A stretch of DNA of 64,000 nucleotides, taken from a virus. The notes beneath the pieces were generated by a model. The model was given only the letters and a program-made list of their open reading frames with translations, had not been told where the DNA came from and ran no database searches. Shown piece by piece: positions 16,021 through 57,069 of this stretch. Every line of letters starts with the position of its first letter. Within the stretch, counting starts at the first letter, position 1. The position numbers and the translations under genes were made by a program. The stretch is from IMG/VR virus record IMGVR_UViG_3300029554_000001, one strand, 5' to 3'.

Positions 16021-17061
16021 GAAATCCTTATGAAAACGCTGACGTTCATAGTGATATGTTCGAAAAAATACTCCTTTAACTGCTGGGAACTTCTAAGGCT
16101 TAATTAACTAAAGCGGAATATGAAAATATAAACGTAAAAGTTGCGAAAGCAGAAAAAATAATTAAGATGACTTATGGTTAAATCCTAAAAGTTGTAATAA
16201 TGAACAATCAGCAACCAAGCTCCTGTAAAATGGAGAAGGCTCAACGACTATCTCGAAAGAGAGTAGGGGAAACCCGAAATGGGGAGATTCTTTTAATAAG
16301 AATAAGATATAGTCTAATTAATTGAAAAGAAGTGATGTAAAATAGACGAAAAAGAATATACCGTATATTAGCATATAAACAAATTAAATCGGAAGCGATA
16401 CATTGGTATGACTAACTAGCCCGTAAATAAAAGATGGGGTAAAAATGGATAGCGGTATTTAAGATAGAACAAAAATGGGGAATACAATTAGCCAGCAATA
16501 GCAAGAGCTATTTTAAAATATGGCTGGGATAATTTTAGTCATGAAATTATAAGTTCTGGCTTAAGTGTGGAAGAAGCCTGTCAATTAGAATATGATTTGA
16601 TAGAAAAATATCACACAAGAGATTCTAACTATGGGTATAATTGTACTTATGGAGGTATATATCACACTAAAACAGAAGAGGAAAAAGAAAAAATAAGTAA
16701 AAGTAACAAAAAGTTCTATGAGAGTCATTAGCATCACATGAAAGGGACACATTTATCAGAAGAAACTAAAAAACGTCTAAGTGAAATATTTAAAGATAGA
16801 GTTTTTTCTGAAGAAACGAAACAAAAAATGTCCCAAAACCATTGCAATGTAAATGGAGCAAAGAATCCAAGAGCTAAAAAGGTTCGTTGTATTGAAACAG
16901 GAGAAATATTTGAAACAGCTAAAGAAGCTGGAGAGAAATATCATAATTGTCCCTCAAATCCTCGGTGTGGAATTAGAGATTGTTGTAGGGGAAGAAGAAA
17001 AACTTCTGGAGTAGATGAAAATGGAAATGGTTTACATTGGGAATGGGTCGATTAAAAACAG
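16021..17061 (+). mobile_element. group I intron A with a GIY-YIG ORF
   Basis: P1: exon TCAGT pairs with GCTGA (16038-16042) with a U-G pair. P2 hairpin has a GUGA tetraloop. Conserved core CTGCTGGGAA...GCGAAAGC...ATGGTTAAATCCTAA...AATCAGC...CTCAACGACTATC...GAGTAG...GATATAGTCT. A P10-like match supports the 3' splice site after G17061. Confidence 0.8.
16336..17055 (+). CDS. GIY-YIG homing endonuclease in intron A; no canonical start codon
   Basis: EYTVY-TAG-HINK..RYIGMTN...KRW...ILKYGW...YGYN. At least 6 in-frame TAGs. The frame opens directly after a TGA (16333-16335) with no in-frame ATG, GTG or TTG ahead of the GIY motif. Confidence 0.6.
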
Positions 17062-17418: not shown

Positions 17419-18579
17419 CAAATCGAAAAGAAATACTCCGCACATTTAGTGATAAGTGTGTGCATCCCATTGAACTGCTGGGAGTTCTTAAAGGTTTTTG
17501 TACTACAGCATAATTATGAAATAAGAATAAGTGCGAATGTTACGAAAGTAAAAAGAAACAAAAACATGGTGCATGGTTAAATCCTAAACACTATATAATA
17601 GATAATCAGCAGCCAAGTCTTTAACAGAGAAAGGTTCAACGACTATCCCGTGACTGGGAGTAGGGGTTGTTAAAGAATAACAACTTCGAAGTGGTGGGAC
17701 ATCTTAATGAGATGATGATATAGTCTAAGCTTATATGAAAATATAAGAAGTAGGTTGTTTTTAAGGGCGACAAGGGAAGGCCATCCTTTATACATATCCG
17801 CAAAATATGTATATAGCCCTTTATATATTAAAAATACTTTTTGCGGGAGGTTTTTAATGAAAGATGATAGAAAATGGACAGTATATATTCATACTAATAA
17901 AGCAAATCAAAAGAAATATGTTGGAATAACTAGTACTTCTGTGATAGAAAGATGGCATCATGGACATGGCTATTTAACCAAAAAGAAAGATGGAAGTTTT
18001 TGTTAGCCAGCTATGGCTTATGCAGTATTAAAATATGGATGGGAAGGTTTTTCTCATGAAGTAATAGCTGAAAATTTGACTATGGAAGAGGCTTCTTAGA
18101 TGGAAAAAGAACTGATAGAAAAATATTAGTCTAATAACAAACATTTTGGATATAATATTAAAGAGGGTGGAATAGATGGATTGCCTTCTGAAGAATCAAT
18201 TCAAAAAGCTTTATAGACAAAACTTAAGAATGGATATCACCATAGTGAAGAAACTAAAAGGAAGATATCTGAAAGTAATATGGGTAAAACTCATACTGAT
18301 TCATCTAAAGAATTGTTAAGTAAAAGCCATAGTAAAACAAAACAGAGACCGAAGGAAGTAATTCCACGGAATGATACATATAATTAGGTTTATTGCCAAT
18401 GTGTAGAAACAGGAGAGTGTTTTCCCTCAATTTCTAACGCCGCTGTTAATACTGGCTCTTACAACCCAAATATAGTTAAATGTTTAAAAGGAACAAGAAA
18501 AAGAGCTGGCGGATATCATTGGAAAGAAATAACAAAAGAAGAATATGAAGAATACTGTGCCAACAACTGAAAATACTTG
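17419..18579 (+). mobile_element. group I intron B with a GIY-YIG ORF (junctions approximate)
   Basis: Same conserved core as intron A (17475-17730), including the GNRA-capped hairpin GCACATTT-AGTGAT-AAGTGTGTGC. I could not find a clean P1. Confidence 0.7.
17857..18570 (+). CDS. GIY-YIG homing endonuclease in intron B
   Basis: RBS GGGAGG. WTVYIHTN..KKYVGITS...ERW...VLKYGW...FGYN plus a C-terminal NUMOD-like region. Several in-frame TAGs; TGA stop. Confidence 0.8.
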
Positions 18580-37146: not shown

Positions 37147-38465
37147 TAAGAATTTATATGAATTATAAACGAATAGCTAACGTTCACAGTAATGTGTTCG
37201 AAAAAGCGACAAATTGAATTGCTGGGAAATCCTAAAGTTGATTCAACTACAACGTAATTATGAAATATGAATAAGCGTGAATGTTGCGAAAGCAGAAAAA
37301 ATGAATCAAATATTTACATGGTTAAATCCTAAATAAATATAAATGGGTAATCAGCCGCTAAGTTCTGAAAAAGAAAAAGTTCAACGACTATCTCTGTTAA
37401 AGAGAGTAGAACCAAGTGGTTCGAAGTGGTTTGCCCCTTTTAATTAAGGGTGAAGATATAGTCTGTGCTTTATAGAAATATAAAGAAGTTCATAAGAGAA
37501 CTGCTTAAGTGTAACGAACTTAAGTGACCAATGTTTATTAATAAATTATATTATCAAAAGACATAAAATTTTTTAAAGAAAGGAGGGATAGAATGATTCT
37601 TCACGAAGAAGTGGATATTAATATAAATAACAGAAATATTACTTATTATAAGAATAAAGGATATGATTGTAAATCTGGAGATACATTGAAAGTAAAAGAA
37701 AAAGATATCCTTCCAACAAGCCCTTTAAAAGAAGAAAGAAAATGCGATGTTTGTGGACAAAACTTCATAAGAAGAAGAGATAATAATATTGAATCTTTTA
37801 ATAGATTTGGGAAAGATGTTTGTCCTCATTGTTTTAAAACTAATAAAAATATTAAAGATATAGTTCAACAAAAGAGAGAAAAAACTTTTATAAACAACTA
37901 TGGAGTAAATAATCCTATGTTTGTTCCAGAGTTTGTTGATAAAATTGGAGATACCTTAGAAGAAAAATATGGGGCAAGGAATCCATCTCAAATAGAAGAG
38001 TTTAAAATTAAACAAGAAGAATCTATGTTGGAAAAATATGGTGCTCGTAAAGCTTTGCAAGTAAAGCAGTTTCAAGAAAAATTTATAAAAACCATAAGTG
38101 AGAATTATTCTGTGAAGACCTCTTCTCAATAGGTTGCTTGTTTTAATATGTTAAAAGAGCGTGGATATAATGTTGAATTAAATTATCCTTATTCTACTTG
38201 TTCTTTAGATATTTTAATTATTATGCCAGATGGGACAAAAATTGACTTTGAATATGATGGAAGTCATTGGCATGATGATGAATAGAAAAAAAGAGATAGA
38301 AAACGTGACGAGTTTTTAAAAGGACAGGGTTTTAAAATAATTAGAATGGAATCTAAAAGAAGTATTCCCTCTTGGGAACAAATTGAAGATGAGATAAATT
38401 ATTTAATGGAAAAACCAGAAAGAAAATTTGCTCATTTATGTATTGATAATATAAACAATTGATAG
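37147..38465 (+). mobile_element. group I intron C with a Vsr/EDxHD-like endonuclease ORF
   Basis: P1: exon TTAGT pairs with GCTAA (37176-37180) with a U-G pair. P2 has a GUAA tetraloop and the core matches introns A, B, D and E. Splicing after G38465 gives ...FAPFS-TQEFELHTLENQ... Confidence 0.8.
37593..38462 (+). CDS. intron-encoded homing endonuclease, Vsr-like/EDxHD (I-Bth0305I-like) family
   Basis: RBS AAAGGAGGG. Repeated (E)KYGxxNP modules, then LDILII...IDFEYDGSHWHDDE-TAG-KKRDRKRDEFLKGQGFKIIRME. Two in-frame TAGs. Confidence 0.6.
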
Positions 38466-40273: not shown

Positions 40274-40612
40274 ATGGGCTATGTTTATTTTATAACAAAT
40301 GGGGAAAATATTAAAATAGGATATACTAAAAATTCAGTTCAGAAAAGACTAAAACAATTAAATACTGGCAGTGATAAGCAATTATATATCTTAGGATATA
40401 TGAAAGGCACTATGGCTGATGAGGAAAACCTTCATTCTAAATTTTAGCAATATAAAATTAGAAATAATGGAGAATGGTTTGAGCCATCAGATGATATATT
40501 GGACTATATTAATATAGTTAACCTTGTTCCTAATTGCTACGTTCGGAAGAACGAGGCTTGGAATAACAAAGTAATGGCTATGACTTCTGTGCCATTGTCA
40601 TTTACATCATAA
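40274..40612 (+). CDS. T5orf172/MUG113 (GIY-YIG-like) domain protein
   Basis: GYVYFITNGENIKIGYTKNSVQKRLKQLNTG....LGY...E..LH.KF-TAG-...GEWFE. One in-frame TAG. Confidence 0.6.
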
Positions 40613-40634
40613 GGAGAAAGGAGGAAGAAAAATA

Positions 40635-42548
40635 TTGGATAAAAAAGTTCTGAAATTTGAACTTTCTCCGCAAAGTTTGAAAATTAAGAATGTGTTAAAA
40701 AATGACTTTATTGCTATCGACGTTTACGCGATTTCTGATGTCTACCCTAATAGAAATAATAGCTATTTCCCTGTGTCTGCTATGCAAGACGCTAAACCTA
40801 CCTTTTATAATAAACCCGCTCTTGGTGCTTTTGATACTACTCATGATGACTTTAAAGCTCATGAAATGGAATATAGATGGGATAATGAGTTACAACAAGA
40901 TTACTTTGACTTTACTAATGGTAAATGTGAAGTCCCACTTGGCGTAATTCGTGGCGAAGATTTGGTTGAAATTGTCGAACATGACGGTCAAACTTGGGTA
41001 CATTTTACTTGCGTTCTTTGGGCTAAATATGCTTATAAACAAGTTAAAAGATTGCTTAAGGATACTAAAAAGAAAATTTCTGTAGAAATAGAAGTCCTTG
41101 AAAGTCATATAGATGAAAATAAAGTCGAAGTAATAGATAGATTCATTTTTGATGGATTTACTATTCTTGGTTCTGCTGTTACTGAAGCTATCCCTAATGC
41201 ACATTTAACCATTCTTGATAAAATTAATGACGCTGTTTATCAGAAACAGGAAAAATGCTTATCTTTCGCTTATAAAGAGTTGGAAGATAATAACAATAAA
41301 GATAAAAATTCTGGCTCTGATACAGATAATAAAAATGAGGATTTCGATTCCATTATTCCTGATAACGGAATTGTTAATGAAAAAGTGGACGAAATCACGA
41401 TGGATAATGAACAAAGAGGGGAGGAACCAAAAACAATGACCTATGAAGAGAAAAGACAACTTCTCGAATCTTTTCTGAATAGCGGTCTTGATGAGAATGC
41501 TTCTCATTACAGTGTCACGGAAATTAACGACAATGTTGTTTGCTTTAGCCTTGATGATGAAAATTTTAAAGCTACTTATAGCATCAACGAAGAAAATGTC
41601 GCTAATGTTGATATGGACGCTAAAGAAAAGATTGTACTCTCTAAGGATGAAAATCCTGAAGATGAGAGTGGTAAAGAGACTGAATCCAAGGAATGTGAAT
41701 CTGAAGACGGCAAGTGCGAAGTCTGCGGTAACAACCCTTGCACTTGTGCGCATGAAGATGACGATGGTAATAAGGATGACGGTCATAAAGAGAATGAGTC
41801 TGAAGATGACAAAAATGATGATGACCACGACCATGATGATGATAATGATGATAACGACGATGATGATGGCAAAAAGGAAACCGAGGCTGAGGATAACGAT
41901 GGTGAAAAGAAAATCGAAAATTGCGAAGACCCCGCTCAGTTTGCCGCTACTGATGTAACTGTCGATGAATCTCATGCTGACCATGGACAGATTGAAGGTG
42001 AAGAGCTTGGTTCTCCTAAAGTTGATACTGATATCCTCAAAGAACATGATGATGGCAGTATTTTAGTCGGCCAACCTTCTGGTGAAAGTAATGTTATTCA
42101 GGATACCCACTATGCTGTCGGTGATGAACAACTTACTGCTGATGAACTTTATGAGAGATTCAATACTCTTAATACCTCTTTCGCTGAACTGACTGAAAAG
42201 TATAACGCTCTTAATGCTCAGTTTAACGCAAAGAAAAATGCCGAACTTTATGCTTTGGCTTGTTCTTTGGTTGATTCTGAAGAAGATTTGACTGAGGAAA
42301 ATGCTACTAATATTAAGGCATTTATGAAAGAAAATTGTGATAACAGTACTTATGCTTCCGATGAGGAACTTAATGAGGCTGTTGACCATAAAATTGCAGA
42401 TGCTCTTTATGCTCAGAAGAAACTTAGTAGAAAAGCTAAGGAGAAAGAGTTTTCTGCTGATATCGTTAAGGATAAACCTGTTGTTACTGAAGTGAACGAC
42501 AGCGCAAATAACCTTAAAAATGCAATGAAAAATCTTAATAAGATTTAA
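40635..42548 (+). CDS. scaffold-like protein with an N-terminal globular (possibly protease) domain and an extremely acidic linker
   Basis: 637 aa, located just upstream of the decoration-like and capsid genes. D/E/N/H-rich tract (DDDHDHDDDNDDNDDDDG) and a C-terminal coiled coil. Confidence 0.5.
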   Translation: MDKKVLKFELSPQSLKIKNVLKNDFIAIDVYAISDVYPNRNNSYFPVSAMQDAKPTFYNKPALGAFDTTHDDFKAHEMEYRWDNELQQDYFDFTNGKCEVPLGVIRGEDLVEIVEHDGQTWVHFTCVLWAKYAYKQVKRLLKDTKKKISVEIEVLESHIDENKVEVIDRFIFDGFTILGSAVTEAIPNAHLTILDKINDAVYQKQEKCLSFAYKELEDNNNKDKNSGSDTDNKNEDFDSIIPDNGIVNEKVDEITMDNEQRGEEPKTMTYEEKRQLLESFLNSGLDENASHYSVTEINDNVVCFSLDDENFKATYSINEENVANVDMDAKEKIVLSKDENPEDESGKETESKECESEDGKCEVCGNNPCTCAHEDDDGNKDDGHKENESEDDKNDDDHDHDDDNDDNDDDDGKKETEAEDNDGEKKIENCEDPAQFAATDVTVDESHADHGQIEGEELGSPKVDTDILKEHDDGSILVGQPSGESNVIQDTHYAVGDEQLTADELYERFNTLNTSFAELTEKYNALNAQFNAKKNAELYALACSLVDSEEDLTEENATNIKAFMKENCDNSTYASDEELNEAVDHKIADALYAQKKLSRKAKEKEFSADIVKDKPVVTEVNDSANNLKNAMKNLNKI

Positions 42549-42572
42549 TTAAAAAAGGAGGATAACTTTATT

Positions 42573-43100
42573 ATGAAATTTATTGAGAAGATTTTGATGG
42601 CTTCTGAAGATGTTAAAAGCTATCTGGTTTCTGGCGTTTGCAAAGACAAGGAACTCGCTGATGGTTCTTTGGTTGAAATTGGCGACCTCATCGACCATGA
42701 GGTTTATAAGGGTCTGAAGGATATGAATACTCGTGAGATTAAGCCTTACGCTGGTACTGGTCGTGTCGGTATCGTTGACTATGTTGGCGTTTCTAAGGGC
42801 GAAATCATGGGCGTTGTCTACAGTGAGGGTGTTAAGACTTGCGGTCTTCCTTGCCCTGCTGGTGCTCATACTCGCGTTCGTTGCCCCAAGCTTGGTGACG
42901 AGTTCTATCTCGGTGAAGATAACTTTGAGTCTGCTCCTACGGCTGGTCAGTTCGCTGTTGCTGGTTCTGATGGTCAGTGGGCTCCTGCTGCTGTTGCTGC
43001 TGCTGACAAGCTCTGTGTTAAGGTCGAGTTTGGCAAGGATAAGATTATCGGTGTCAAGAACGAGGGTAAGAAGTTCTATTGCACCGTTGTCCACGAGTAA
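42573..43100 (+). CDS. head decoration-like or other abundant capsid-associated protein
   Basis: 175 aa, no TAG, biased codon usage, located between the scaffold and the major capsid gene. Confidence 0.45.
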   Translation: MKFIEKILMASEDVKSYLVSGVCKDKELADGSLVEIGDLIDHEVYKGLKDMNTREIKPYAGTGRVGIVDYVGVSKGEIMGVVYSEGVKTCGLPCPAGAHTRVRCPKLGDEFYLGEDNFESAPTAGQFAVAGSDGQWAPAAVAAADKLCVKVEFGKDKIIGVKNEGKKFYCTVVHE

Positions 43101-43208
43101 TTTTAAATTGTTCTTGAATAATTGTTCTTGAATAACTTGAATAGTTTAAAAAAATATTGATATTTACTTTATGATTTTTATAAATTAATTAAGGAGGATT
43201 TTGTTATT

Positions 43209-43704
43209 ATGAAACAAATTTTTAGTTATAACAAATTCAACGAAGATGTCGCTGATGGTCTCGTTGAAACTTGCTATTCTTTGGCTCAGAAGTCCATTGA
43301 GGGTAAGAACAACACCCCTGAGTATATTGAAGCTAATAAGACCTTTAACCAAGAGTTTATGAAGTATTGTGTTGAGAACGCTGGCATGAAGTGGAGCGGT
43401 CTCGATATGATTAAGAATCCTATGGTCTACAAGAAGAGTAACTTCCTTGAGACTTTTGATACCATTCTTGCTGGTGCTATCACTCCTGTTGTTCCTACTG
43501 TTGCTGCGTCTGGTTATGAACAGCTTTATGATGTCACTCAGGTTGGTTTCGGTGATGTTGCTAAGTATGAAGTCGATAGCAATGAGCTCTTCATTGTGAA
43601 TAGCCTTGCTGAAGGCATTGCTCGTGGTGGTGTTCAGACTGCTTCTAACACTGAGTATACTATTTCTGCTAAGAGAGAGCAGATTTCTCTCTATGTTGAC
43701 TGGT
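43209..43704 (+). CDS. major capsid protein, exon 1
   Basis: Strong RBS AAGGAGG, biased codon usage, position after the scaffold gene. Ends ...ISLYVDW plus the first nt of a Tyr codon. Confidence 0.65.
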
Positions 43705-45151
43705 TAAATATAAGTACGTTATAAATAGCTAGGGCGTATAGTAATATGCGTAAAAATATTTCCATTTAATTGCTGGAATACCGTAAAGACAATCAAACTA
43801 CAACGCAAAATTGAAATAGATTTAATCGTGATAGTTGCGAAAGCAGAAAAAATTGATTGTATGATATAAGGTTAAACCCTAAGTATCTTAAAAATTGGTA
43901 ATCAGCAGCCAAGCTTCGAAAAGAAGAAGGTTCAACGACTATCCTCGTAAGAGGAGTAGGAATATAGTCAATAAATTATTCCGAAATGGTGGACATCCTA
44001 TAGGGATGAAGATATAGTCTAAGCTTGTGTGAAAATACAAGAATCCGAAAGGGTTAGAGCGAATTGACGATTCGAAAAATTTAGTGTTTAAATAAAATAA
44101 AAAGGAGGTTTGTATGTTAAAAGAAAATCAATTGATTGAAATTCCTTGGACACAAACCGCTTAGAAATATTTCAATGAAAAAGGTTATAGTCTTTTTAAA
44201 GGGAAGACTATTCATGTTAAACCAGAAGAATTACCAGAAGGAAGCCATAGAGAAGTTGTGGCTGTTTGTGATTTTTGTGGAAAAGAAATAACGGTTCAAT
44301 ACAAAAAATATTTAAAAAGAATAGAAAAGCATGATGGTAAATATTGTTGTAGAGATTGTTGGGGAAAGAATAAAGAGCTAATAGCTCAAAGAAATAATAA
44401 GTCTATAAAAACAAATTTAGAAAAATATGGAGTAGATAATCCTGCTAAAAGTGAAGAAATTAAGGATAAATCTAAAAAGACTTTAAATGAAAAATATGGG
44501 GTGGATAATCCTCGGTAGATTAAGGAAGGTCAAGAAAAAGCAAAACAGACTTGTTTGAAAAAATATGGAGTTGAATATCCAATTTTAACAAAAGAAGCAA
44601 AAGAAAAAGCTGTTAAAACTTGTTTGGAAAAATATGGAGATGTAAATCCTTTTTCGAATAAAGAAGTAAGAGCTAAAGCTATCAACACTTGCAGGGAAAA
44701 ATACGGTTGTGATTATCCCGTACAAAATCCAGAAGTGCGAAAAAGAATGCAAGAAGCATTAGCTAATAAAAAAGAATTAATTCCATGTTCTTCACAACAG
44801 TTAAAAATTTATGAAATGCTTTTAGATGAATATAAAGTAGAGTTGAACTACCCTTTAAGTCAACTCAATTTAGATGTAGCTATTTTTATTGGAGATATTA
44901 AAATAGATTTGGAATATGATGGTTGGTATTGGCATCAAGACCAGTAGAAAGATATAAAAAGAGATAGAGTAGTTCAAAAAATGGGTTACAAAGTCTTAAG
45001 AATAAAAGGAGACCATTCTATTCCAGAAAAACAAGAAATAATTGACAAGATAAATTGGCTATTAAAAGATAATAATTATTATGCTGAAATAATTTTAAAA
45101 GATTATGAATAGCAAAAAGCTAAAAACACTAAATAACTCTTAATATAACTG
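43705..45151 (+). mobile_element. group I intron D with a Vsr/EDxHD-like endonuclease ORF
   Basis: P1: exon CTGGT pairs with GCTAG (43728-43732) with a U-G pair. P2 has a GUAA tetraloop and the core is conserved. Splicing after G45151 gives ...VDW-Y-HVASGRQDWG... in frame. Confidence 0.8.
44114..45136 (+). CDS. intron-encoded homing endonuclease, Vsr-like/EDxHD family (paralogue of 37593..38462)
   Basis: RBS AAAGGAGG. Five KYG(V/C)(D/E)(N/Y)P repeats, then LDVAIF..IDLEYDGWYWHQDQ-TAG-KDIKRDRVVQKMGYKVLRI. Four in-frame TAGs. Confidence 0.6.
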
Positions 45152-45768
45152 ACCACGTGGCATCGGGTCGCCAAGATTGGGGTAAGCTTCTCCAGAAGAT
45201 TGGTGCTTCTTTTGCCGCTTATATTCAGGCTCGTCTTGCTAAGGTAATGGCTTCTATTATTACCAATAACACTGACGTTGCCACTAACAATCAAGATGGT
45301 ATCGCTGGCTATATGGCTAACGGTCTTACTGATGAAAACTGGCTCAAAGTTGCACGTTTGGTAAAACTTGCTAATGGCGGTGCTGATGTTTATGCTCTTG
45401 GTACTTCTATTGCTCTCGCTTCTGTCCTTCCTGACAGTGCAAAGGGTTTCCGTTATGGTGAGGATAGCGCTATTGTTAGAGATGGCTTCCTGCCTGATTA
45501 CAAGAATGTTCCTATGATTGAACTGGGTAACGCTCTTGTTCCTAACACCATCAATGGTGAGCCTGAAGTCGTTCTTCCTGATGATATTATTTACATGCTT
45601 CCTCTTGGTATGAATAAGCCTATCAAGGTTGTCATGGAAGGTAATACCGTTTCTGTTGAGAAGGACCCCTTGTTTGCTGCTGACCATACTTACGGTTTCA
45701 CCGTTGACATGCGTATGGGTATGGACGCTATTGTAGGTAGCAAGATTGGTGCTATTACTCTTAACTAA
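45152..45768 (+). CDS. major capsid protein, exon 2
   Basis: Continues track ORF 45157..45768; no TAG codons. Confidence 0.65.
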
Positions 45769-45876
45769 TATCAAATTATAATCTAATTATAAGTAATTAA
45801 TTATAATAATTAGTTAATTTCGTAAATTCTGGTTGCTCCAGATATGTTTAAAAGGTTTAAAAGGAGATTGTAAAAA

Positions 45877-46725
45877 ATGGCTGTAAATAAGAAAACTATT
45901 AAAAATACAGAAGAAGTTGTAAACGAAACTAATAAGGAACAAATTGCTGAGAATGCGGAGACTTCTGTTAAGGAGTCTCCTGCTACTCAGTCTTCTATCT
46001 CGTTAGAAGATATTCAAGCTATGATGGCAAAGTTCCAGTCTACGATTGAATCTTTGAGTAGTGAACTCAAGGAAGAGAAAGCAAAGAACGAAAAGTTGGC
46101 AGAAGCAATCAAAGAATCTACTTTGAATGATAGAGAGGGCGATACAGAAAGTTCTTTTAAGGCAAAAGAAGTACAGGATAATACTTCTAATACAACAGAA
46201 AGACTTTTGGAAATTCTTGGCAATAGAAAGAGTGACAAGGAAATTGTTATTGTTCATAATCGTGAGTTGCTTGGTGGTCTTTCAACCGCTATTCAGCTTA
46301 CTGGTTTGACTATTAATTTCCATACTCTCGGAGAACAGCGTGTTCTTAGTTGGCAACAGTTTGAGGAATGTGTTTCCAAATATCGTAAGTGGTTCGATAA
46401 AGAAATTATTCTTTTGGCTCCCGAATTCGCTGATGTTGCGGAACGCTATAATGTTTCCTGTTTAAAGAGAGAGGGTCATGCTGTTGTTACGAAGGGAGAC
46501 CTCGTAAATATTTACAAGAAGAGTGAGCGTGAACTTGAGGATTACATGAATTCTTTGACTGAAGCTGATAAAGACTTTATTTGTTCTTATTGGCTTGGAA
46601 AGTGCTATGAAAATGATGCTAAATATCGTGTTAGAAGTAAAGTTGAGCTTCTGAACAGAATTTCTAACAAGGGTGTTTTTGACAATCTGTTGGCTCAAAT
46701 GAATTTTGATTCAATAAGACATTAA
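45877..46725 (+). CDS. hypothetical head-associated protein
   Basis: 282-aa ORF with the RBS AAAGGAG. Confidence 0.6.
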   Translation: MAVNKKTIKNTEEVVNETNKEQIAENAETSVKESPATQSSISLEDIQAMMAKFQSTIESLSSELKEEKAKNEKLAEAIKESTLNDREGDTESSFKAKEVQDNTSNTTERLLEILGNRKSDKEIVIVHNRELLGGLSTAIQLTGLTINFHTLGEQRVLSWQQFEECVSKYRKWFDKEIILLAPEFADVAERYNVSCLKREGHAVVTKGDLVNIYKKSERELEDYMNSLTEADKDFICSYWLGKCYENDAKYRVRSKVELLNRISNKGVFDNLLAQMNFDSIRH

Positions 46726-46744
46726 ACAAATAAGGAGGGTTTAA

Positions 46745-47452
46745 ATGGGCATTTTGTTTAGTGATGTCTATCGAAAAGCAATAGCCTTATTTGATGACCC
46801 AAGGATTACGACAGCGTATGAGACTAATCCTTTGCAATTTAATAAGATAATGTACACCTATTTGCAAAATGCAATATCTATGTTTAACAACCCTCTAAGC
46901 GTTTCTTTACGTTTATCTCAATATAAAGAACCAAAAGGTATCATGCAAGTTTTTGAAGGGGATGGTAAGAATAATAAATTCGAACTTGACCCTGAGTTTG
47001 AGATTCAGGATAATTCAGTATATAATTATATTGAGGGAGAATTATTGGTGCAAGGCTCGATTGATAAAGAAGCTCACACTGTAGAATTCCCTGATGTGTT
47101 ACCTGAAGGCAAGCAATATGCAGTTGAGCAATATTATGTTGGTGAATTTACTGACAATTTTGAAGGCTTAACTAATAAAAATGTAAATGGTACAAGTTTA
47201 GTGGTAGGTTATGTTAAAGATATTCTTGCTCGTTTGCTTGTAAAAGCATGGGGAGAAGAAGAGCGCAATTTGTTATTAGATATTCGCAATTTAATGCAAG
47301 ACAGCGATTTCAAGATTATGTCTAATGACCGTATCTTAAAAGCAAAAAACGAATGGGTAGACCAACTTGATTCAGAAATATACAATTATCAAAATAGACT
47401 TGCGTGGCAAATCCGTTTTATGGGTGGTAGTAAGTTTATAGGAAGGGGGTAA
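46745..47452 (+). CDS. hypothetical head-tail joining region protein
   Basis: 235-aa ORF with the RBS AAGGAGGG. Confidence 0.6.
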   Translation: MGILFSDVYRKAIALFDDPRITTAYETNPLQFNKIMYTYLQNAISMFNNPLSVSLRLSQYKEPKGIMQVFEGDGKNNKFELDPEFEIQDNSVYNYIEGELLVQGSIDKEAHTVEFPDVLPEGKQYAVEQYYVGEFTDNFEGLTNKNVNGTSLVVGYVKDILARLLVKAWGEEERNLLLDIRNLMQDSDFKIMSNDRILKAKNEWVDQLDSEIYNYQNRLAWQIRFMGGSKFIGRG

Positions 47453-47454
47453 AG

Positions 47455-47790
47455 ATGGATAAAGACGAAAAGAACTTCAAAGTAGTTTTATCTATTAATG
47501 AGAAAATTATATGCTTAGAAGAAATAGTTTCAAAATTGAAGAAAGTTCTTTATGTATATGACAAATCTCAAGAACCCGATTCCACTTATAATTACCGTGT
47601 GTATTGTGGTGGAATAATGATGTATGTTTCGTCAAGTAATATTCTTTTTGATGGTGAATTAGTAAGTATTATAATTAATATCAATGCTATTTTAACGAAT
47701 CAATTAGATAAAGGACAGATTAAGAAGTTAATATTTGAATCAATCAATTATGCAGAGTATTTATTAAAGAAATACAAAAACGAAGGTTAA
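47455..47790 (+). CDS. hypothetical protein
   Basis: 111-aa ORF tightly coupled to the upstream gene. Confidence 0.55.
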   Translation: MDKDEKNFKVVLSINEKIICLEEIVSKLKKVLYVYDKSQEPDSTYNYRVYCGGIMMYVSSSNILFDGELVSIIININAILTNQLDKGQIKKLIFESINYAEYLLKKYKNEG

Positions 47791-49687: not shown

Positions 49688-50695
49688 TTGGCAATATCTA
49701 AAGAGTTACAAGCTAAAATGGAAATGTACGAACAAGCCTATTTCGGTCTGGATTTACCAGTGCCATTTAAAGGCTTGTTAATTTATCCAGTTTTAACGAA
49801 AGATTACTATAATTTTTATGCTAATTTATCTTGTTTTACTCAAGATAAAAATATTAAAGAAATAAAAGTTGTAGATGAAAATGGAATAGAAACTACTAAA
49901 AAAGTGGCTAATCCTGAAGGTATTGGTATGTCTTATATGGCATATTTAATATAGAATATGGAAAACCAAGAATATGGACCTATGGTTACTTCTTAGGTAA
50001 TTAATATGTTCGAACTTGTGCTCCATGAAAAAAATGGTTTGTTTTGTCCTCATTGTGGATTCAAACGAACTTAGTTTGAAGTTATCAAAGAATATGCTAA
50101 ATTCCAAGAAACATTACCTGATAATTTAAGCGAAACTGAAAAGAAAGTTAAAGCTCTTGAGTTTATTAATAATTATGCTATATGTCCAGAATGTAAAAAC
50201 AAAATGAGAGATATCTATGGAATTCAAACGGGTGCTAATGGCGTGAAAAAATTATATATATACGATATAGTTTTAGAACCAAAAGAACTTGATGAATTTA
50301 TAGCTATTATTACACACCAAAATATTTTGGATTACGATGGAGATAGGTATATCGACCCCAATTTAAGAGAAGAAATGGAATTAAAGGCGAGGATGCAGAA
50401 CAAGAATTACACATCTCCAAGTTTGGAAAAATAGCTTGTCTGTATATCCATTAGTTCTCCATACACTATGGAGATGTTAAAAGAACAAGTAAGTTTGAGA
50501 AAACTTTCTTTAATGCTAAAAACCATTGATGCTAAGGGGTATTATTACGCTTAGATTTAGGGTGCTATGTCTCGGATGGTTTAGTTTAAGGATGGAGACA
50601 TTCACCATTGGATATTTACTGATAACAAGAAGGATATGTCTAAGGAAATTATGACAATGAATGATTTCCAAAAGAAGTTTGCTTCTGTTACATAA
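49688..50695 (+). CDS. hypothetical protein with a CxxC...CxxC zinc ribbon
   Basis: TTG start. Track ORFs 49688 and 50204 share one frame, joined by about 7 TAGs. The TAA overlaps the next ATG. Confidence 0.5.
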
Positions 50696-51501
50696 TGGAG
50701 AGAAAAGTGGAAAAATTTACGACTGAAGAAAAACAAAATATTATAAAAGAATATGAGTCTGGATTGTCTTCTGGATAGCTGGCAGAAAAATATCGGTGTA
50801 ATAAATCGACAATTTGCGACATTCTTAAAAAGAATGGAGTTAAAGCAAGAGATGGACATTTTAAGAGATAGTATTCTTTTAATGAACATTATTTTGACAA
50901 AATTGATTCAGAAGATAAAGCTTATTTTTTGGGTTTGTTATTTGCTGATGGATGTAATTTAAAAGAAAGAAATGTAGTTTGTATTGAGTTGGTAAAAACT
51001 GATTCTGCTATATTAGAAAAATTTGCTGAAGTAACTGAAAATAATAGACCATTGTATGATTATAATCACAAAAATGGTTAGACTTCTACAAAATTAAGTT
51101 TTACTAGTAAATATTTTTGTGAAATTCTTGATAAACTTGGATGTGTACCAAGGAAGTCTTTGGTATTGCAATTTCCAGATTATTTAGACAAATCTCTTTT
51201 AAGACATTTTCTTAGAGGATATTTTGATGGAGATGGAAGTATTACTTTATATAGAGGTAAAAGTACGATTAATCGGCAAGCTTCTGTAGTAAGTAGTAAA
51301 GATTTTATAGAATCTCTTAAAGAAAAAATAAACCAAATTAACCCGAACATACATTACATTACTAGGTCAACTGGTAATGGAAGTAGTTTGGTTTTATGTA
51401 GGAAAGATTCTATTAAAGAATTTTTATCTTATATTTATGAAGACTGTTCTATATATTTAGAAAGAAAATTTCTAAGATATCAAGAACTAATAAATAAATA
51501 A
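50695..51501 (+). CDS. free-standing LAGLIDADG homing endonuclease with an N-terminal HTH
   Basis: LGLLFADGCN and LRGYFDGDGSI motifs; three in-frame TAGs. TAATG overlap with the upstream gene. Ends 15 nt before the tail tube start codon. Confidence 0.75.
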
Positions 51502-51515
51502 GGAGGATATATATT

Positions 51516-51522
51516 ATGTTAT
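51516..51522 (+). CDS. major tail tube protein, exon 1 (7 nt: ATGTTAT)
   Basis: RBS AAGGAGG then ATG. P1: GTTAT (51518-51522) pairs with GTAAC (51556-51560), which abuts P2 exactly as in introns A, C and D. Confidence 0.5.
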
Positions 51523-51910
51523 CGGATGCCGAGTCCGCATTTGCTTGGCTAAAGAGTAACCGTATACAGTGATGTGTATGTAAAAATAGTCTTTGAATTG
51601 CTGGAATTCCCTAAAGCTGTTTATGCTACAACAAAAGGATGAAATATGCCTAATTGTGAATGCTACGAAAGTAAAAAGAAATAAACAGATGATATATGGT
51701 TAAATCCTAAGTGTTGAATAATGGGTAATCAGCCGCTAAGTCTTGAATAAAGAAAAGTTCAACGACCATTTCGAAAGGAAGTATACCACAAGTGATTGGT
51801 GGTAGAAGTGGAGACTGCCTTTTAATAAAAGGTAATGATATGGTCTAATCTTATATGAAAATATAAGGCGAAAGCAAAATAAGAGTAGCGTCTTATTTTA
51901 AATTAAAATG
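51523..51910 (+). mobile_element. group I intron E, without an ORF
   Basis: Same core as introns A-D (TTGCTGGAATT...GCTACGAAAGT...ATGGTTAAATCCTAA...AATCAGCCGCTAAG...GTTCAACGACCATT...GATATGGTCT). P10: TTGGCTAAAG pairs with the exon 2 start TTTTAGCTGG. The omega G is at 51910. Confidence 0.75.
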
Positions 51911-52938
51911 TTTTAGCTGGTGTAGGCCGCGCCACTCTTCTCGATGGCGAGCGCCTTGTTGCTACTGCAAATACTCTGATTGATTCTAGTATTACTATTG
52001 GAATCAGCTTCGAGGACCTGCGTGCTGGTATGGGCAATAAGCTTTATGGTCGTTATGCGCATACTTCTACTTTTGACCTCAAGCTGACCGATGCCATGTT
52101 CTCTCTTGAGTATCTTGCCATGAATACTGGTTCTGAGGTTGAACTCGGTGGTGACGCTATGAAAGACGAGAAGCTCACTGCTGATGCTACTGGTAAGGTT
52201 ACTTTGTCTTATAAGGCTGTTCCTATGGTTGGTAATACTAATGTTTATGCTTATATTAAGAAGTCTGGCACCGACGAAGGCTATCAGCGTTATGCTGTTG
52301 CTGGCGATGGTGTAAATGAAGTTTCTCTTGGTGAGGCAATGAAGGATGCCGAAGTTTGTGTTCGTTATATGTATCATAATGATATTGCTTCTAAGATTAC
52401 CATTAGCGCTAACTTCATTCCTAAGACTCTGACTTGCATTCTTGAGGCTAATCTTTACAACGGTGGTTCTTGTGATGTTGAGACCTCTACCCTCGCTGGT
52501 AAGGTTATCATTAAGGTTCCTCGTTTCATGCTCAACGGTTCTCAAGAACTCAGCATGAGCGCTTCTGGTGTTTCTAACACTTCTATTGAAGGTTCTGCTC
52601 TTGCTTCTGGTTGTGCTGGCTGCGACGGCGACGGCGTTTATGCTGAAATCGTTCAGGTTCTTGAAAACAAGACCGCCGCTGACATGTTCGCTAGCATTGT
52701 TATTGAGGATAAAAACCAGACCGCAAAGGCTGGCGATAAGATTGAACTTAACGTCTATGCTTGCCCTGTTGATGGTGCTCCTATTAAGTTGAATCCTGAC
52801 CAGTATACGGTTGCTGTTACCACTGGTGCTAGCACTTATGCTAATGGTGTCGTTACCGTTGTGGATACTAGTGTCGTTACTGTTAAGTTTGTCCCTAATG
52901 ATAAGCTTTCCGACACTATGAATATTACTGTTGCTTAA
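51911..52938 (+). CDS. major tail tube protein, exon 2, with a C-terminal Ig-like (Big_2-type) domain
   Basis: The spliced product reads MLF-LAGVGRATLLDGERL... The frame is open upstream of track ORF 52030..52938, has no TAG, and shows biased codon usage. The C-terminal KAGDKIELNVYA...VTVKFVP resembles Ig-like domains of tail tube proteins. Confidence 0.6.
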
Positions 52939-52967
52939 TTTAATTAACGAACAGGAGATTAAAATAA

Positions 52968-53135
52968 ATGCTTTGCAGTAATGCACAGCAGGAAAATGGT
53001 GGAAGAATAACGTGCAGAGTCGATGGGAAAGAACCTCATCGGCTCTGTCCTTATCAAAAATATTGTCATTAGAAGTGTGCATGGGAAAATTCTCCTGCCA
53101 TGACGAGCTGTGAGAGGAGATTAAGAAATGGATGA
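52968..53135 (+). CDS. small Cys-rich protein
   Basis: 55 aa with one TAG. Overlaps the next gene by 8 nt. Confidence 0.35.
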
Positions 53136-53499
53136 AATGAACAGCGCTTTTGATATTGAAGTTTCTCCTAAGAAAGAAAACAAGGAGAAGCAGATTCAAT
53201 ATAAGAAGTATGACAAAAACAAGCACAACAAGGGAATTGTAAAAGAAGAAATTGTTGAGTCTGTTAAGCAGGAGTTAGAAAGTGTCGCTGAAGAAGAAGT
53301 TAAGCCTATTGCCGAAAAGTCAAAATTAAAAGAAGGTTGGGCAAGAGGGATTGTACATAGTAAGTGGAAGACTTCTGCTTGGGTAATTCTTGAAAATGGG
53401 AAAGGTCTCACGATGAATAATTTTGGTAAATACTCTATTGGTGAGACTGTTGAATTTGAATTACCTTCTTGGTACAAAGATTTACCGAAGAGTAAGTAA
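53128..53499 (+). CDS. hypothetical protein
   Basis: 123-aa track ORF. Confidence 0.55.
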   Translation: MDEMNSAFDIEVSPKKENKEKQIQYKKYDKNKHNKGIVKEEIVESVKQELESVAEEEVKPIAEKSKLKEGWARGIVHSKWKTSAWVILENGKGLTMNNFGKYSIGETVEFELPSWYKDLPKSK

Positions 53500-53513
53500 T
53501 GACAAATAAACTG

Positions 53514-53541
53514 AGGATGGGGTTAATCCCATCCTCTTTTT
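53514..53541 (+). terminator. rho-independent terminator
   Basis: GAGGATGGG-GTTAA-TCCCATCCTC followed by TTTTT. Confidence 0.8.
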
Positions 53542-53550
53542 AGACGCGAA

Positions 53551-53562
53551 AGAGAATAAAAA
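53551..53562 (+). repeat. left copy of the 12-bp direct repeat AGAGAATAAAAA
   Basis: Identical to 60960-60971. Lies 10 nt after the terminator. Confidence 0.5.
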
Positions 53563-53670
53563 GTGAATTTTATTTGGTGAAACAGGTGTGTTTTTCCCTT
53601 TAAAATCAAGGATTTTGAAAAGTATCTTTTTGATGAAGATTTTATTCGGTAAAGATTTTTCTCAAAGTCC

Positions 53671-53699
53671 TTGACAAAAATTCAAACATTTGGTATATT
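53671..53699 (+). promoter_or_regulatory. sigma70-type promoter
   Basis: TTGACA (53671-53676), 17-nt spacer, TGg TATATT (53694-53699). Confidence 0.6.
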
Positions 53700-53833
53700 A
53701 AATATGAAAAATATTAAATGGAGGAAGTGAAGGCGAATCTACAACATGAGTTGTATATACTTATATTAATTGTTAATTATTGAAGGTAATAATTAAAAAA
53801 TATAAGTTCCTATAATAAAGTAGGGGGTTAATT

Positions 53834-55282
53834 ATGAGTAAAAGCAAAGACAAGATTAGAGTAAGTTTTAAAAATTCTGGAGCGGCAGAAGATGTAACAG
53901 GTTCTTGTACTGTTATTACATGGGGAAAGCCAGAACGAACAATTCTTGTCGATTGTGGATTGGTACAAGGTAATCAAAGTCTTTTGAAAGAATATCAGGC
54001 TAATAGTGCAAGATTTACATTTAAAGAGAAGAATGTAGATTATGTATTTGTGACCCATTCGCATGTTGACCATTCAGGTCGTTTAAGCCTTTTAACCAAA
54101 AGAGGATTTGATGGAAAAATTATTGTGCCTGATGGTAATAAAGATTTAATTCGAGAATTGCAATTAGATAGTGCTAAGATTATGTTAAGAGATGTTGAAG
54201 ATTTGTCTCGAAAACTTAAAAGGGAATATTCTCCGATTTATGAAGAATCTGATGTAAAAGATATGCTTACTCATATTGAAGAATATCCTTTTAAGGAAAG
54301 AATTAAATTAGACGATGATGTAACATTTGAGTTTATTCCTTCTGGACATATTGTTGGTGCTGCTCAATTGATTCTATATATCAAAAATGGTAGTGTTACC
54401 CGTAAAATAGCGTTTACTGGTGATTTAGGTAATATTAGAACCGAAACTTATTATGCAAATAAGTTTGAACCTATTCAAAATGCAAATTTGTTAGTGGGTG
54501 AATCTACTTATGCCAGCAAAGAAAAAAGTGCTAAAGCAAAAGATAGAGAAAAAGATTTAGAAAAGATTAAAACTTTTGTGTATGATGTTTGTATTGATGG
54601 AAAAGGAAAGTTACTTTTTCCTTCTTTCTCTTTAATGAGAAGTCAAGTAATTTTAACCATTCTTTACGAAATGTTTAAAGATGACGAGAATTTTAATATT
54701 CCTGTTTATGTTGGCTCTCCTTTAACTTGTAAAATTAATAAAATTTTTAATGAAATTTTAGAGGGTGAGCAACTTAAGAGATGGATTGAAGCTTCTTCAT
54801 GGGATAAGGTTAAATTTATCAATAATTATGAAGAGATTGAGCAAATTTTAGTAAAGCCTGACCCAGCAATTTTTATTTCTAGTGCAGGAATGCTTAACGC
54901 TGGTTTTGCTGTAGGTATTGCTGAAAAGCTCCTTCCAAGTGCTAAGAATGGAATTGCATTTATTGGGTATTCTGTTGAAGGGTCTTTGGCTTGGAAAATT
55001 AAACAAAAGAAGACTAAGACCGTTGCCATTAATGGAAAACAAATCCTGAGTCGTTGTAGAGTAATTAACTTAAATAGTTTTTCAAGTCACATGCAAAGAG
55101 ATGAGCTTTGCGATTATTACAGCGGTGGTCTTGGAACTAGCGGTTATGGTAAAGTTGTCCTTCAACATGGTAATATGAAAGATAGAGTTGAACTGAGTAA
55201 AACTTTATCGGAGCTTATTAGTAAAAGAAATAGAACAGACAAAGTTGTTGTAGCTAATAAATCAACAGAAATTTTATTGTAA
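53834..55282 (+). CDS. metallo-beta-lactamase-fold / beta-CASP nuclease (RNase J / CPSF / SNM1-like)
   Basis: HSHVDHSG (HxHxDH) motif; 482 aa; C-terminal SSH...motif region; no TAG codons. Confidence 0.75.
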   Translation: MSKSKDKIRVSFKNSGAAEDVTGSCTVITWGKPERTILVDCGLVQGNQSLLKEYQANSARFTFKEKNVDYVFVTHSHVDHSGRLSLLTKRGFDGKIIVPDGNKDLIRELQLDSAKIMLRDVEDLSRKLKREYSPIYEESDVKDMLTHIEEYPFKERIKLDDDVTFEFIPSGHIVGAAQLILYIKNGSVTRKIAFTGDLGNIRTETYYANKFEPIQNANLLVGESTYASKEKSAKAKDREKDLEKIKTFVYDVCIDGKGKLLFPSFSLMRSQVILTILYEMFKDDENFNIPVYVGSPLTCKINKIFNEILEGEQLKRWIEASSWDKVKFINNYEEIEQILVKPDPAIFISSAGMLNAGFAVGIAEKLLPSAKNGIAFIGYSVEGSLAWKIKQKKTKTVAINGKQILSRCRVINLNSFSSHMQRDELCDYYSGGLGTSGYGKVVLQHGNMKDRVELSKTLSELISKRNRTDKVVVANKSTEILL

Positions 55283-55319: not shown

Positions 55320-55818
55320 AATAAACCTATTGACACAAGAGGTCAGGGTTGCCAGAGAAGTTGTATATTGGGCTACCATCCAGTGATGCAATGGAGGCTT
55401 ATTAGGGTTGTCAGGTTTCCACAGGGTAGCAATTAAAACTGTCCGACCAACATACTTTCATGCGTGGTTTCAAACGGAAGAGAAAGGCGTTTTAAGGTGT
55501 CGGCATAAACCTTATCATCTTATATACCATGTTGTATATTTAGACCAGCTACGAGGCATAGTCTTGCAGCTTTTTAATGTGGTGTCCATGAGCACAGGAT
55601 AAGGACTTAAAGAAGACCAAATTTACGGGTTCGTAAAACGGGTCTGAGCCATATATCTCATGTACCATGTGTACAAGGAGTTCCTTAAGACGTTAGAGTT
55701 TAGCTTTAGCGTTTTATGCAATGAAAAAGGTGAGACAGGGAGTAGCTACCTTTTGTTTTGCCCCAACAAAACAATTATCATCTTTTTCATTTTTAATTAA
55801 GACTTGGGGGTTTTAGTT
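55320..55818 (+). ncRNA. candidate large structured noncoding RNA, family not recognised
   Basis: About 500 nt with no credible ORF and visibly more G+C than the surroundings. Nested hairpins include AGACC-AAAT-TTACG-GGTT-CGTAA-AACG-GGTCT, GTCCGACC...GGTGTCGG, GCTACC...GGTAGC, AAAAGGT...ACCTTTT and GTTTTG-CCCCAA-CAAAAC. Confidence 0.4.
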
Positions 55819-57069
55819 ATGGGAATACAAGAATTTAATACTGAAACAAAGTTAACTTGTGCGTAGATTAGAGATGGGGAAACTCTATTTTATTCTAAAA
55901 AGACAGGTAATAGAAAACCTATTATATGGGGAGTATATTTTATTAGAAATATGCAAAATAATAAGGTTTATGTAGGTTCCTCCAATGATATAGTTAGAAG
56001 ATGGAAAAACCATTGTAGTGATTTAATTTATTAGAATCATATAAATAAGCATCTATCTGCGGCATGGTTAAAATATGGGCAAGATAGTTTTGTTTTTGAA
56101 TTAAAAGAAATTTATGAACCAAATGATAAATTTGATAAAAAAGAAAATTTAGATTGTCTTCGTAAAAGAGAACAGTATTATATAAATTTATATGATACTA
56201 GTAATAATAAAAAGGGGTATAATGAAAGCAATTTAGCGACAAATCCTTCTATTAATGTTACTGAAAAACTCCTTAATGGAGAACGAGCAATATCTCCGTA
56301 GCAGTTTTACAAAGTTGTTGATTTACTTTTGAATTCTGAGTTGAATTTAAGAGAAATTTCAGATGAAACTGGAGTAAAATATACTACTGTTAAAGATATA
56401 TATTAGAAAAGAGAGTATAAAGAATTATTAACTGGTTATAATTTTCCTGTAAGAAGTAATGATAAAACTGATAAGTTAAAGCGAGAGCATTGGAATGATA
56501 TAATGAATTTATATAATTTGGGAATGCCCGCTGAACAAATCAGCAGAGAAATTAATTGTGGAATTAGCGTGCTAAAAAATCTTTTAAGAAAAGAGGGTAT
56601 TCCGTTTGGTGTGAATAAGCCTCGTTATTTTATTTTTGATTTATATGGTAATTTAATTGGAAGTTATTTTAGTTCTTCTGACGCTGGAAAATTAATTGGA
56701 TAGAAAAGTTAGACTATTGTATCAGCGGCAAATCATGGTTGTTTGGTTGATAAAAAATATAAAATTTCAAAAAATCCAGAACCACCATCTTTCACTGAAA
56801 CAGAAAAAATATTTGGTCATTATATTTCATCTTTTGGGAAAAGTATCATTGCTGTTGCTTATAAAAATGGTAAGCCAGACAAGGTTTATAACGGCATAAG
56901 ACCAACTTTTTCAGATAAAGATGCAGAAAAAATTATAGATGCTTTAAAACAAAATAGCAATGAAGAAATTTTTGGTTATACTTGGAAACGTCTTGAAGAT
57001 GTTCCCGATTTAGACAAATAGATTTTAATGAATAAAAATTTAAAGGTTAAAAAAGGTGTTTTAAAATGA
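55819..57069 (+). CDS. free-standing GIY-YIG homing endonuclease with C-terminal DNA-binding modules
   Basis: GVYFIRN..NKVYVGSSNDIVRRW..H...YGYN-like core. Track ORFs 56503 and 56743 are in frame. About 7 in-frame TAGs. The TGA overlaps the ClpP-like ATG. Confidence 0.65.

Follow-up and report, generated by a model that had tools for sequence, protein, structure and literature searches.

The DNA analysed here (IMG/VR record IMGVR_UViG_3300029554_000001; 64,000 nt, referred to below as the window) comes from an uncultured phage, the related contigs of which are 210–223 kb in length and derive from human-gut assemblies. At the 5' end of its tail-tube gene we observe two separate selfish elements only 21 bp apart: a group I intron that lacks an open reading frame (ORF) and a free-standing LAGLIDADG endonuclease gene, which we call HEG-1. 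The features of the locus are as follows.

49688..50695, plus strand: gene upstream of HEG-1 (335 amino acids; seven in-frame TAG codons; stop TAA at 50693–50695 overlapping the HEG-1 ATG)
50695..51501, plus strand: HEG-1, free-standing homing endonuclease gene with two LAGLIDADG motifs (268 amino acids)
51500..51506, plus strand: tail-tube ribosome-binding site (RBS) AAGGAGG, overlapping the HEG-1 stop codon; native, being found in empty alleles also
51516..51522, plus strand: tail-tube exon 1 (ATGTTAT), as given by the empty-site allele; 51518–51522 form the 5' strand of P1
51523..51910, plus strand: ORF-less group I intron of 388 nt, between nucleotides 7 and 8 of the coding sequence, ending with the omega-G at 51910
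51545..51554, plus strand: P10 guide UUGGCUAAAG, paired with nucleotides 1–10 of exon 2
51556..51560, plus strand: 3' strand of P1, or internal guide sequence (GUAAC); G51556 pairs with U51522
51911..52938, plus strand: tail-tube exon 2 (YomU-type major tail protein), without TAG codons

The intron boundaries can be read from natural alleles in which the gene is uninterrupted. Across the insertion site the intron-less allele L001 has AAGGAGGATATATATTATGTTAT followed directly by TTTTAGCTGG (or, with other flank lengths, GGAGGATATATATTATGTTAT followed by TTTTAGCTGGTGTAGG, and AAGGAGGATATATATTATGTTAT followed by TTTTAGCTGGTGTAGGCCGCGCC), and the window contains this same sequence split between T51522 and T51911. 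Because the intron begins with C and ends with G and both flanking exon bases are T, the boundaries are exact and no sliding is possible. The uninterrupted sequence ATGTTATTTTTAGC is present in L001 and in 11 other empty alleles, and precise excision of the intron restores the reading frame. From these alleles the spliced junction is predicted to be ATGTTAT-TTTTAGC, giving ATG TTA TTT TTA GCT and a protein that starts MLFLAGVG, the product proposed in the initial annotation of this DNA. The predicted N-terminus, MLFLAGVGRATLL, equals that of the uninterrupted homologues (340–344 amino acids), including P0001, which is 98% identical, has 344 amino acids and represents 636 member sequences. At the level of sequence, the comparison proves the anatomy put forward in the initial annotation, namely its splice sites, its 7 nt first exon, its ORF-less intron and a LAGLIDADG gene lying outside the intron.

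The pairings that define the splice sites are consistent with these boundaries. P1 (GUUAU/GUAAC) comprises four Watson–Crick pairs and a U·G pair at the splice site, while P10, formed by UUUUAGCUGG of the exon and UUGGCUAAAG of the intron, comprises ten pairs, six of them Watson–Crick. In a second, distant clade, the tube protein of which is only 67% identical, the intron occupies the same place, after ATGGTAT; P1 there is GGUAU/GUACC, and P10 differs between the clades at two compensatory positions. In both helices, changes in the exon are matched by changes in the intron. The 5' splice site after ATGTTAT, originally deduced from P1, is thus confirmed by L001 and by the covariation of P1, and the 3' site after G51910, originally deduced from P10, by the ten pairs of that helix and by L001, which fixes the boundary. 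P1 and P10 were checked directly on unaligned sequences because in the MAFFT alignment of the introns the first 45 columns were misaligned. When 23 distinct introns were analysed with RNAalifold, 30 of the 85 consensus pairs showed both-side (compensatory) changes, the helices concerned including P2, P4–P6, P7, P8 and P9. The Rfam family RF00028 matches positions 51556–51867 over the full model (1–253) and scores 58.4 bits (gathering score 50; E = 3e-12), and the orthologous intron of L026 scores 67.7 bits with the same family. The length of the ORF-less form is conserved at 386–390 nt in both clades. No credible ORF was found within the intron, the longest sense frame having 39 codons. An antisense frame over the intron (109 codons inside it, 145 in total) was rejected, as it depends on six TAG read-throughs and has no PHROG hit or other family hit.

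The position of the intron has consequences for the start codon. The RBS described initially as strong is AAGGAGG, and the ATG that it serves lies at 51516. P1 takes in G51518 of the AUG together with the next four bases; because the AUG G is part of P1, the RNA needed by a ribosome that initiates at 51516 would also be taken up by a docked P1. The initial annotation noted that translation of the tube would depend on splicing. This is true, but it holds for any intron in a coding sequence, and what is particular here is the presence of the AUG G in P1. The unspliced message encodes an 18-residue peptide that ends at a UGA (51570) inside P2, and in the distant clade the unspliced in-frame stop falls 43 codons in. 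Such a position is workable, since a synthetic td intron placed directly after an ATG splices in bacteria (PMC8565351). We found no sign of regulation; a local fold of 51495–51580, in which the spacer and AUG pair with the 3' strand of P2, was not significant (z = -1.8) and no claim is drawn from it. At this locus a structural gene with high expression tolerates a group I intron 7 nt into its coding sequence, and the start codon lies partly in P1.

The interrupted gene is assigned to the Pfam family YomU_Tube by precomputed matches on its homologues, and it lies downstream of a YomW-family gene; a Pfam scan of the tube protein itself gave no match. The protein matches PHROG 2729 ('virion structural protein'), and its nearest relatives are major tail proteins of Enterocloster phages (34–37% identity). 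A megablast search of 49688–53000 against GenBank phages returned no match, and hence no annotated close relative exists.

Further features of HEG-1 are the following.

50716..50838, plus strand: N-terminal helix-turn-helix (Pfam CENP-B_N, 1e-5, and HTH_23)
50923..50952, plus strand: LAGLIDADG motif 1, YFLGLLFADG
51208..51237, plus strand: LAGLIDADG motif 2, FLRGYFDGDG

The initial annotation had placed a LAGLIDADG gene with its end 15 nt before the tube ATG. The stop codon does end there, at 51501, and the identification is borne out by the two motifs, by a match to Pfam LAGLIDADG_3 (1.5e-11; 44.8 bits against a cut-off of 22.5) and by a match to phrog_4645, 'endonuclease' (1e-61). HEG-1 is not part of the intron: its stop codon is followed by 21 nt of native sequence, made up of the RBS, the spacer and ATGTTAT, before the 5' splice site is reached, and the same 21 nt are present in empty alleles. 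HEG-1 itself is absent from those alleles and replaces an intergenic spacer of approximately 47 nt, GGGGATTAATTTCTCCAACTGATTTAAATCAGAAAAAAATGATTAA; the sequence of its ATG (in TAATGG) and that of its final codons (ATAAATAA) already exist in the empty site. The ORF is intact in all complete loci, both motif aspartates are kept and the gene is under purifying selection, with a ratio of nonsynonymous to synonymous substitution (dN/dS) of 0.09–0.12 at dS of about 0.28. It is therefore plausible, from these sequence features, that HEG-1 is an active enzyme. Since HEG-1 has no sequence relative among solved structures, no target site can be proposed from a characterised enzyme. Its relatives in other phages (Staphylococcus phages, Bacillus phage 0305phi8-36) are often annotated as intron-encoded. 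A further LAGLIDADG-type ORF, 31% identical to HEG-1 (tblastn 5.5e-24), is located at 7961–8794 on the plus strand of the window.

The TAATG overlap between the upstream gene and HEG-1 is present at 50693–50697, but the translational coupling read from it initially is plausible rather than secure, because in four loci (L017, L018, L030 and L031) a run of four A residues directly after ATGGAGAG of HEG-1 has become five and the overlapping ATG is out of frame. The sole remaining start in these loci is a GTG (window 50707) with GGAGAG ahead of it; either this GTG is the real start or the copies are defective or mis-assembled. The HEG-1 orthologue of the distant clade has its own RBS and does not overlap the upstream gene.

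Three in-frame TAG codons in HEG-1 (50776, 50869 and 51079) were overlooked initially, and because of them the ORF is open only when TAG is a sense codon. The phage reads TAG in this way, as many plus-strand genes are open only under that reading: when all six frames are counted, overlapping and antisense ones included, open stretches of 100 codons or more add up to 59.1 kb with TAG as a stop and to 78.7 kb with TAG read through. Opposite the first TAG of HEG-1, the L026 orthologue has CAG (Q) and L005 has AAG (K). In-frame TAG codons abound in most plus-strand genes, with seven each in those at 49688–50695, 9813–10862 and 55801–57069. They are absent from the tube gene, from capsid-like genes at 40584–43724 and 45133–47790 and from the genes at 53125–55282; those of the TAG-free genes that were checked are higher in G+C (40–47% versus 26–33%), and for tube exon 2 these same figures distinguish the exon from adjoining sequence. 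No tRNA gene, and hence no suppressor tRNA, was found in the 64 kb window. In another phage group, TAG has been proposed to delay the synthesis of a recoded intron endonuclease (bioRxiv 10.1101/2021.08.26.457843). By analogy, we infer that HEG-1 would not be made until its TAG codons can be decoded, so that the synthesis of this homing endonuclease would be gated by stop-codon recoding.

The survey of relatives suggested in the initial annotation was made on 78 fetched loci plus the window (L075–L078 repeat contigs already in the set), which were classified using tblastn, blastn and the junction sequence. The distance from the stop of the upstream gene, which is kept upstream of the slot in all relatives, to a marker in exon 2 measures 82 nt where the locus is empty and 1220 nt where HEG-1 and the intron are present. 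The states found are listed below by clade.

Close clade, empty: 12 loci
Close clade, HEG-1 and intron: 12 complete and 4 partial loci
Close clade, intron only: 3 loci (L020, L035, L041)
Close clade, HEG-2 without intron: 7 loci
Close clade, HEG-2 and intron: 2 loci
Close clade, HEG-3 without intron: 1 locus
Close clade, HEG-3 and intron: 1 locus
Distant clade, HEG-1 orthologue and intron: 7 loci
Distant clade, HEG-2-like gene and intron: 3 loci
Distant clade, HEG-2-like gene without intron: 3 loci
Distant clade, intron only: 2 loci
Distant clade, HEG-3 without intron: 1 locus

Empty, intron-only, HEG-1-plus-intron and rival-endonuclease states thus all occur, and the intron-only alleles of the two clades together are L020, L035, L041, L046 and L048. 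Scans of genome contigs, and a HEG-1 scan of viral contigs, yielded no loci beyond those already known. The two rival genes occupy the slot that corresponds to window positions 50696–51499.

L010:1964–2986: HEG-2, a second LAGLIDADG lineage of 340 amino acids with an extra C-terminal helix-turn-helix, 38% identical to HEG-1
L022:2101–2940 and L034:1690–2499: HEG-3, a GIY-YIG/NUMOD3 enzyme

All three endonuclease genes, which are unrelated or only distantly related to one another, replace the same spacer and share an identical right-hand junction, ...ATAAATAAGGAGG. HEG-1, or its 48%-identical orthologue in the second clade, is accompanied by the intron in 23 of 23 loci and is found in none without it. 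For HEG-2 the corresponding figures are 5 of 15 with the intron and 10 of 15 without (Fisher's exact test, 6e-6, or 6e-4 after removal of duplicates); these counts are descriptive, because the loci are not independent samples. An identical 387 nt intron variant adjoins HEG-1, HEG-2, HEG-3 or no endonuclease gene at all, and exchange between slot and intron must therefore be common.

There are also signs of recent movement. Identity in the intron is 98–99% across all close-clade loci but falls to 81–96% over the first 100 nt of exon 2. The window and the near-isogenic empty allele L029 have no single-nucleotide polymorphisms (SNPs) between them in the 2,530 nt upstream of the slot, and in the approximately 1.6 kb downstream of the intron site they differ only by one cluster.

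51987..52047, plus strand: cluster of ten SNPs relative to L029 (+77 to +137), presumed to be a co-conversion tract

Over 4.1 kb, then, HEG-1, the intron and this patch are the only differences, which is consistent with what gene conversion over all three would leave. The near-isogenic HEG-2 genome L010 has a patch of its own at 51930–52047, within the first 135 nt or so of the tube gene. No single exon-2 haplotype is tied to the intron, and the 5' end of the tube gene is a mosaic. At 53589–53830, after 1.5 kb of identity, the window and L029 abruptly show dense SNPs and small indels; this break, which is intergenic and upstream of a beta-CASP gene, suggests another recombination boundary.

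In collaborative homing the site at which an ORF-less intron inserts is the target of a free-standing endonuclease; genomes with the intron are protected, and during repair the intron is copied either alone or together with the endonuclease gene (PMC3984707; PMC10448857). In our view, collaborative (trans) homing is probably the best explanation of the present locus. Under this scheme the intron would remove itself from the mRNA by means of P1, P10 and its terminal G, restoring MLFLAGVG, while HEG-1 would cut intron-less tube alleles at or next to the insertion site. The likely target is the invariant sequence made up of the RBS, the start codon and codons 2–6; the putative target AATAAATAAGGAGGATATATATTATGTTATTTTTAGCTGGTGT, a 43 nt stretch from the RBS to codon 9, is invariant in 20 of 20 intron-less close-clade alleles. 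By splitting this target the intron would shield genomes that carry HEG-1. Repair from a donor with both elements would always copy the intron and usually the endonuclease gene, and short repair tracts would give rise to intron-only, immune alleles.

Two expectations of collaborative homing can be compared with the survey. It predicts intron-only by-products, which are seen. It forbids the 3' end of HEG-1 followed by an uninterrupted start, ...CAAGAACTAATAAATAAATAAGGAGGATATATATTATGTTATTTTTAGC, and the finding of HEG-1 beside an intact site in 0 of 23 loci fits this. The occurrence of the same intron beside four slot states makes the association harder to dismiss as linkage alone. The resemblance to collaborative homing noted initially is real, and the 23 of 23 association, the intron-only alleles and the L029 patch support it, but more than two partners are involved, since one intergenic slot is contested by three endonuclease families.

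Several points weigh against this interpretation. With only 21 bp between HEG-1 and the intron, linkage together with shared origin could give the association, and the loci are phylogenetically non-independent and include several duplicates. The patch in the window starts 77 nt from the insertion site, and the direction of change, gain or loss, is unreadable from the sequence. HEG-2 and HEG-3 must cut elsewhere because they coexist with an intact insertion site, and HEG-1 might, by homology with its 38%-identical paralogue HEG-2, do the same.

These points lead to the strongest of the alternatives, in which HEG-1 recognises a site that is lost when it inserts, either the spacer or one close by, and the intron is an independent element that hitch-hikes 21 bp away. 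That HEG-1, HEG-2 and HEG-3 all replace one spacer with one and the same junction is as this explanation would have it, as are the coexistence of HEG-2 and HEG-3 with an uninterrupted insertion site and the patch that L010, a HEG-2 genome, likewise carries at the start of its tube gene. However, recombinants with HEG-1 and without the intron would then be expected, as they are seen for HEG-2 (10 of 15), and there are none among 23 loci in two clades with HEG-1 proteins only 48% identical; moreover, the identical intron variants at four slot states imply that the 21 bp linkage has often been broken. We consider hitch-hiking unlikely, if worth serious attention.

A second alternative, endonuclease turnover, was raised by Barth et al. 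2023 (PMC10448857). Here the intron would have lost an endonuclease gene of its own and would now be mobilised or accompanied by a later, free-standing one, so that the locus would represent a late stage and not a precursor. The four paralogous cores elsewhere in the window, which are 70–77% identical and each have an endonuclease ORF between the core and exon 2, would suit such a history, as would the alternation of three endonuclease families in the slot. Against it, no ORF remnant is found in the 388 nt intron, the 3' region of which consists of short conserved hairpins, and the ORF-less form is kept at 386–390 nt in both clades. There is in our opinion only a slim chance that turnover is correct; it concerns the origin of the arrangement and is compatible with collaborative homing at the present day.

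Some LAGLIDADG proteins act as maturases, and adjacency could be explained if HEG-1 were needed for splicing of the intron. One LAGLIDADG maturase is mentioned in PMC3984707. We reject this idea, to which we give almost no credence, because intron-only alleles exist: the same intron is present without any endonuclease gene in L020, L035, L041, L046 and L048 and next to HEG-2 or HEG-3 elsewhere, in long, apparently complete phage contigs, and HEG-1 has retained both catalytic aspartates.

Collaborative homing may be taken a step further, although we regard the extension as doubtful. The intron might be an immunity element in a three-way contest between endonucleases, in which HEG-1 would recognise the RBS and start-codon sequence of the tube gene, so that only intron carriers would tolerate it and intron-only alleles would be 'vaccinated'; with part of the AUG in P1, ribosome loading and docking of the 5' splice site might, in addition, be mutually exclusive on the pre-mRNA, tying tube synthesis to ribozyme folding. 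If so, intron-only alleles would spread as 'vaccinated' against HEG-1.

Arrangements of this kind are already known, though rarely documented: the psbA intron of cyanophage S-PM2 with F-CphI, T3-like phages, T4 mobE and the ICP1 terminase. As far as the cited accounts describe them, the S-PM2 system and the DNA polymerase intron of T3/T7-like phages with its adjacent HNH gene (Zeng, Bonocora & Shub 2009; Bonocora & Shub 2009; summarised in PMC3984707 and PMC10448857) are both cases of collaborative homing, and in both, as here, intron-less and intron-containing alleles are natural. Within the same accounts, the enzymes are Endo VII-like or HNH whereas ours is a LAGLIDADG protein; the present endonuclease gene also differs from theirs in lying upstream, 21 bp from an intron at nucleotide 7 of the coding sequence, and in requiring TAG recoding. 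Cleavage at the insertion site is described there as demonstrated; for HEG-1 it is a prediction. T4 mobE mediates trans-homing of the nrdB intron (PMC2790892), and in Vibrio phage ICP1 a terminase intron has an adjacent T5orf172 gene (PMC10448857). Shared with these two systems are a free-standing endonuclease beside an intron-bearing essential gene, co-conversion of neighbouring DNA and the clustering of endonuclease genes around essential genes ('HEG islands'). The enzyme families and host genes differ, and in our locus three endonuclease families alternate in one slot, with all intron combinations in metagenomes.

Phage introns with embedded endonuclease genes include T4 td/I-TevI and those of Staphylococcus Twort/K-like and Bacillus Bastillevirinae phages (PMC3984707; PMC11878797). 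The tube intron belongs to the same ribozyme class, with a phage-type core and P7.1/P7.2-like helices, and a tail-tube host gene has a precedent in Twort orf142. Unlike the T4 td and Twort type, the endonuclease gene is not inside the intron, whereas the four paralogues in the window have the usual embedded layout. Introns at the start of translation are represented by the c-di-GMP-controlled group I ribozyme of C. difficile and the synthetic SIBR td intron (PMC8565351; PMC3984707). There, as here, the intron is a few bases from the start codon and splicing and initiation share a stretch of RNA. In contrast to those cases, no aptamer or regulatory ligand is evident in the tube intron, and the RBS and AUG are both in exon 1, so that the initiation site is not created by splicing; a regulatory role would be speculation.

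What is new is the LAGLIDADG partner, the tail-tube host, the insertion 7 nt into the coding sequence, the recoding and the visibility of all intermediate states together with rival endonucleases. We found no publication describing this locus, within a literature coverage that is incomplete. Collaborative homing is the leading proposal for the first union of endonuclease-free ribozymes with free-standing endonucleases, and natural cases are few. Public metagenomes hold every predicted intermediate (empty, intron only, endonuclease with intron, and rivals with and without intron), and near-isogenic pairs within them expose conversion tracts.

At least four further group I cores, 70–77% identical to the tube intron, are present in the window (43710–44041, 16050–16265, 17470–17747 and 37186–37483). 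They split capsid-like, terminase-like and portal-like genes, and endonuclease-like ORFs follow them before the next exon (44096–45136, 16336–17055, 17719–18570 and 37545–38462, respectively). The core at 43710–44041 scores 65.2 bits with Rfam, only with permissive filters, and 17505–17747 scores 37.3 bits, below the gathering score. The beta-CASP/metallo-beta-lactamase gene at 53834–55282 is closely followed by a match to the Rfam 'drum' RNA (55350–55446, plus strand; 43.6 bits, gathering score 43).

In other alleles the tube gene contains a group II intron of about 1.8 kb at approximately codon 232, as in L037:3297–5103, where it matches Rfam RF02004 (89.7 bits) and RF00029 (54.7 bits). The same site is occupied in L023, L024, L025, L038, L041, L050, L051 and L058, and in L024, L038 and L041 the tube gene has both a group I and a group II intron. 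In a still more distant clade (tube protein 46–48% identical) a related group I core is found in the 3' part of the upstream gene and not in the tube gene (L059, about 2040–2340; L060, about 2050–2350).

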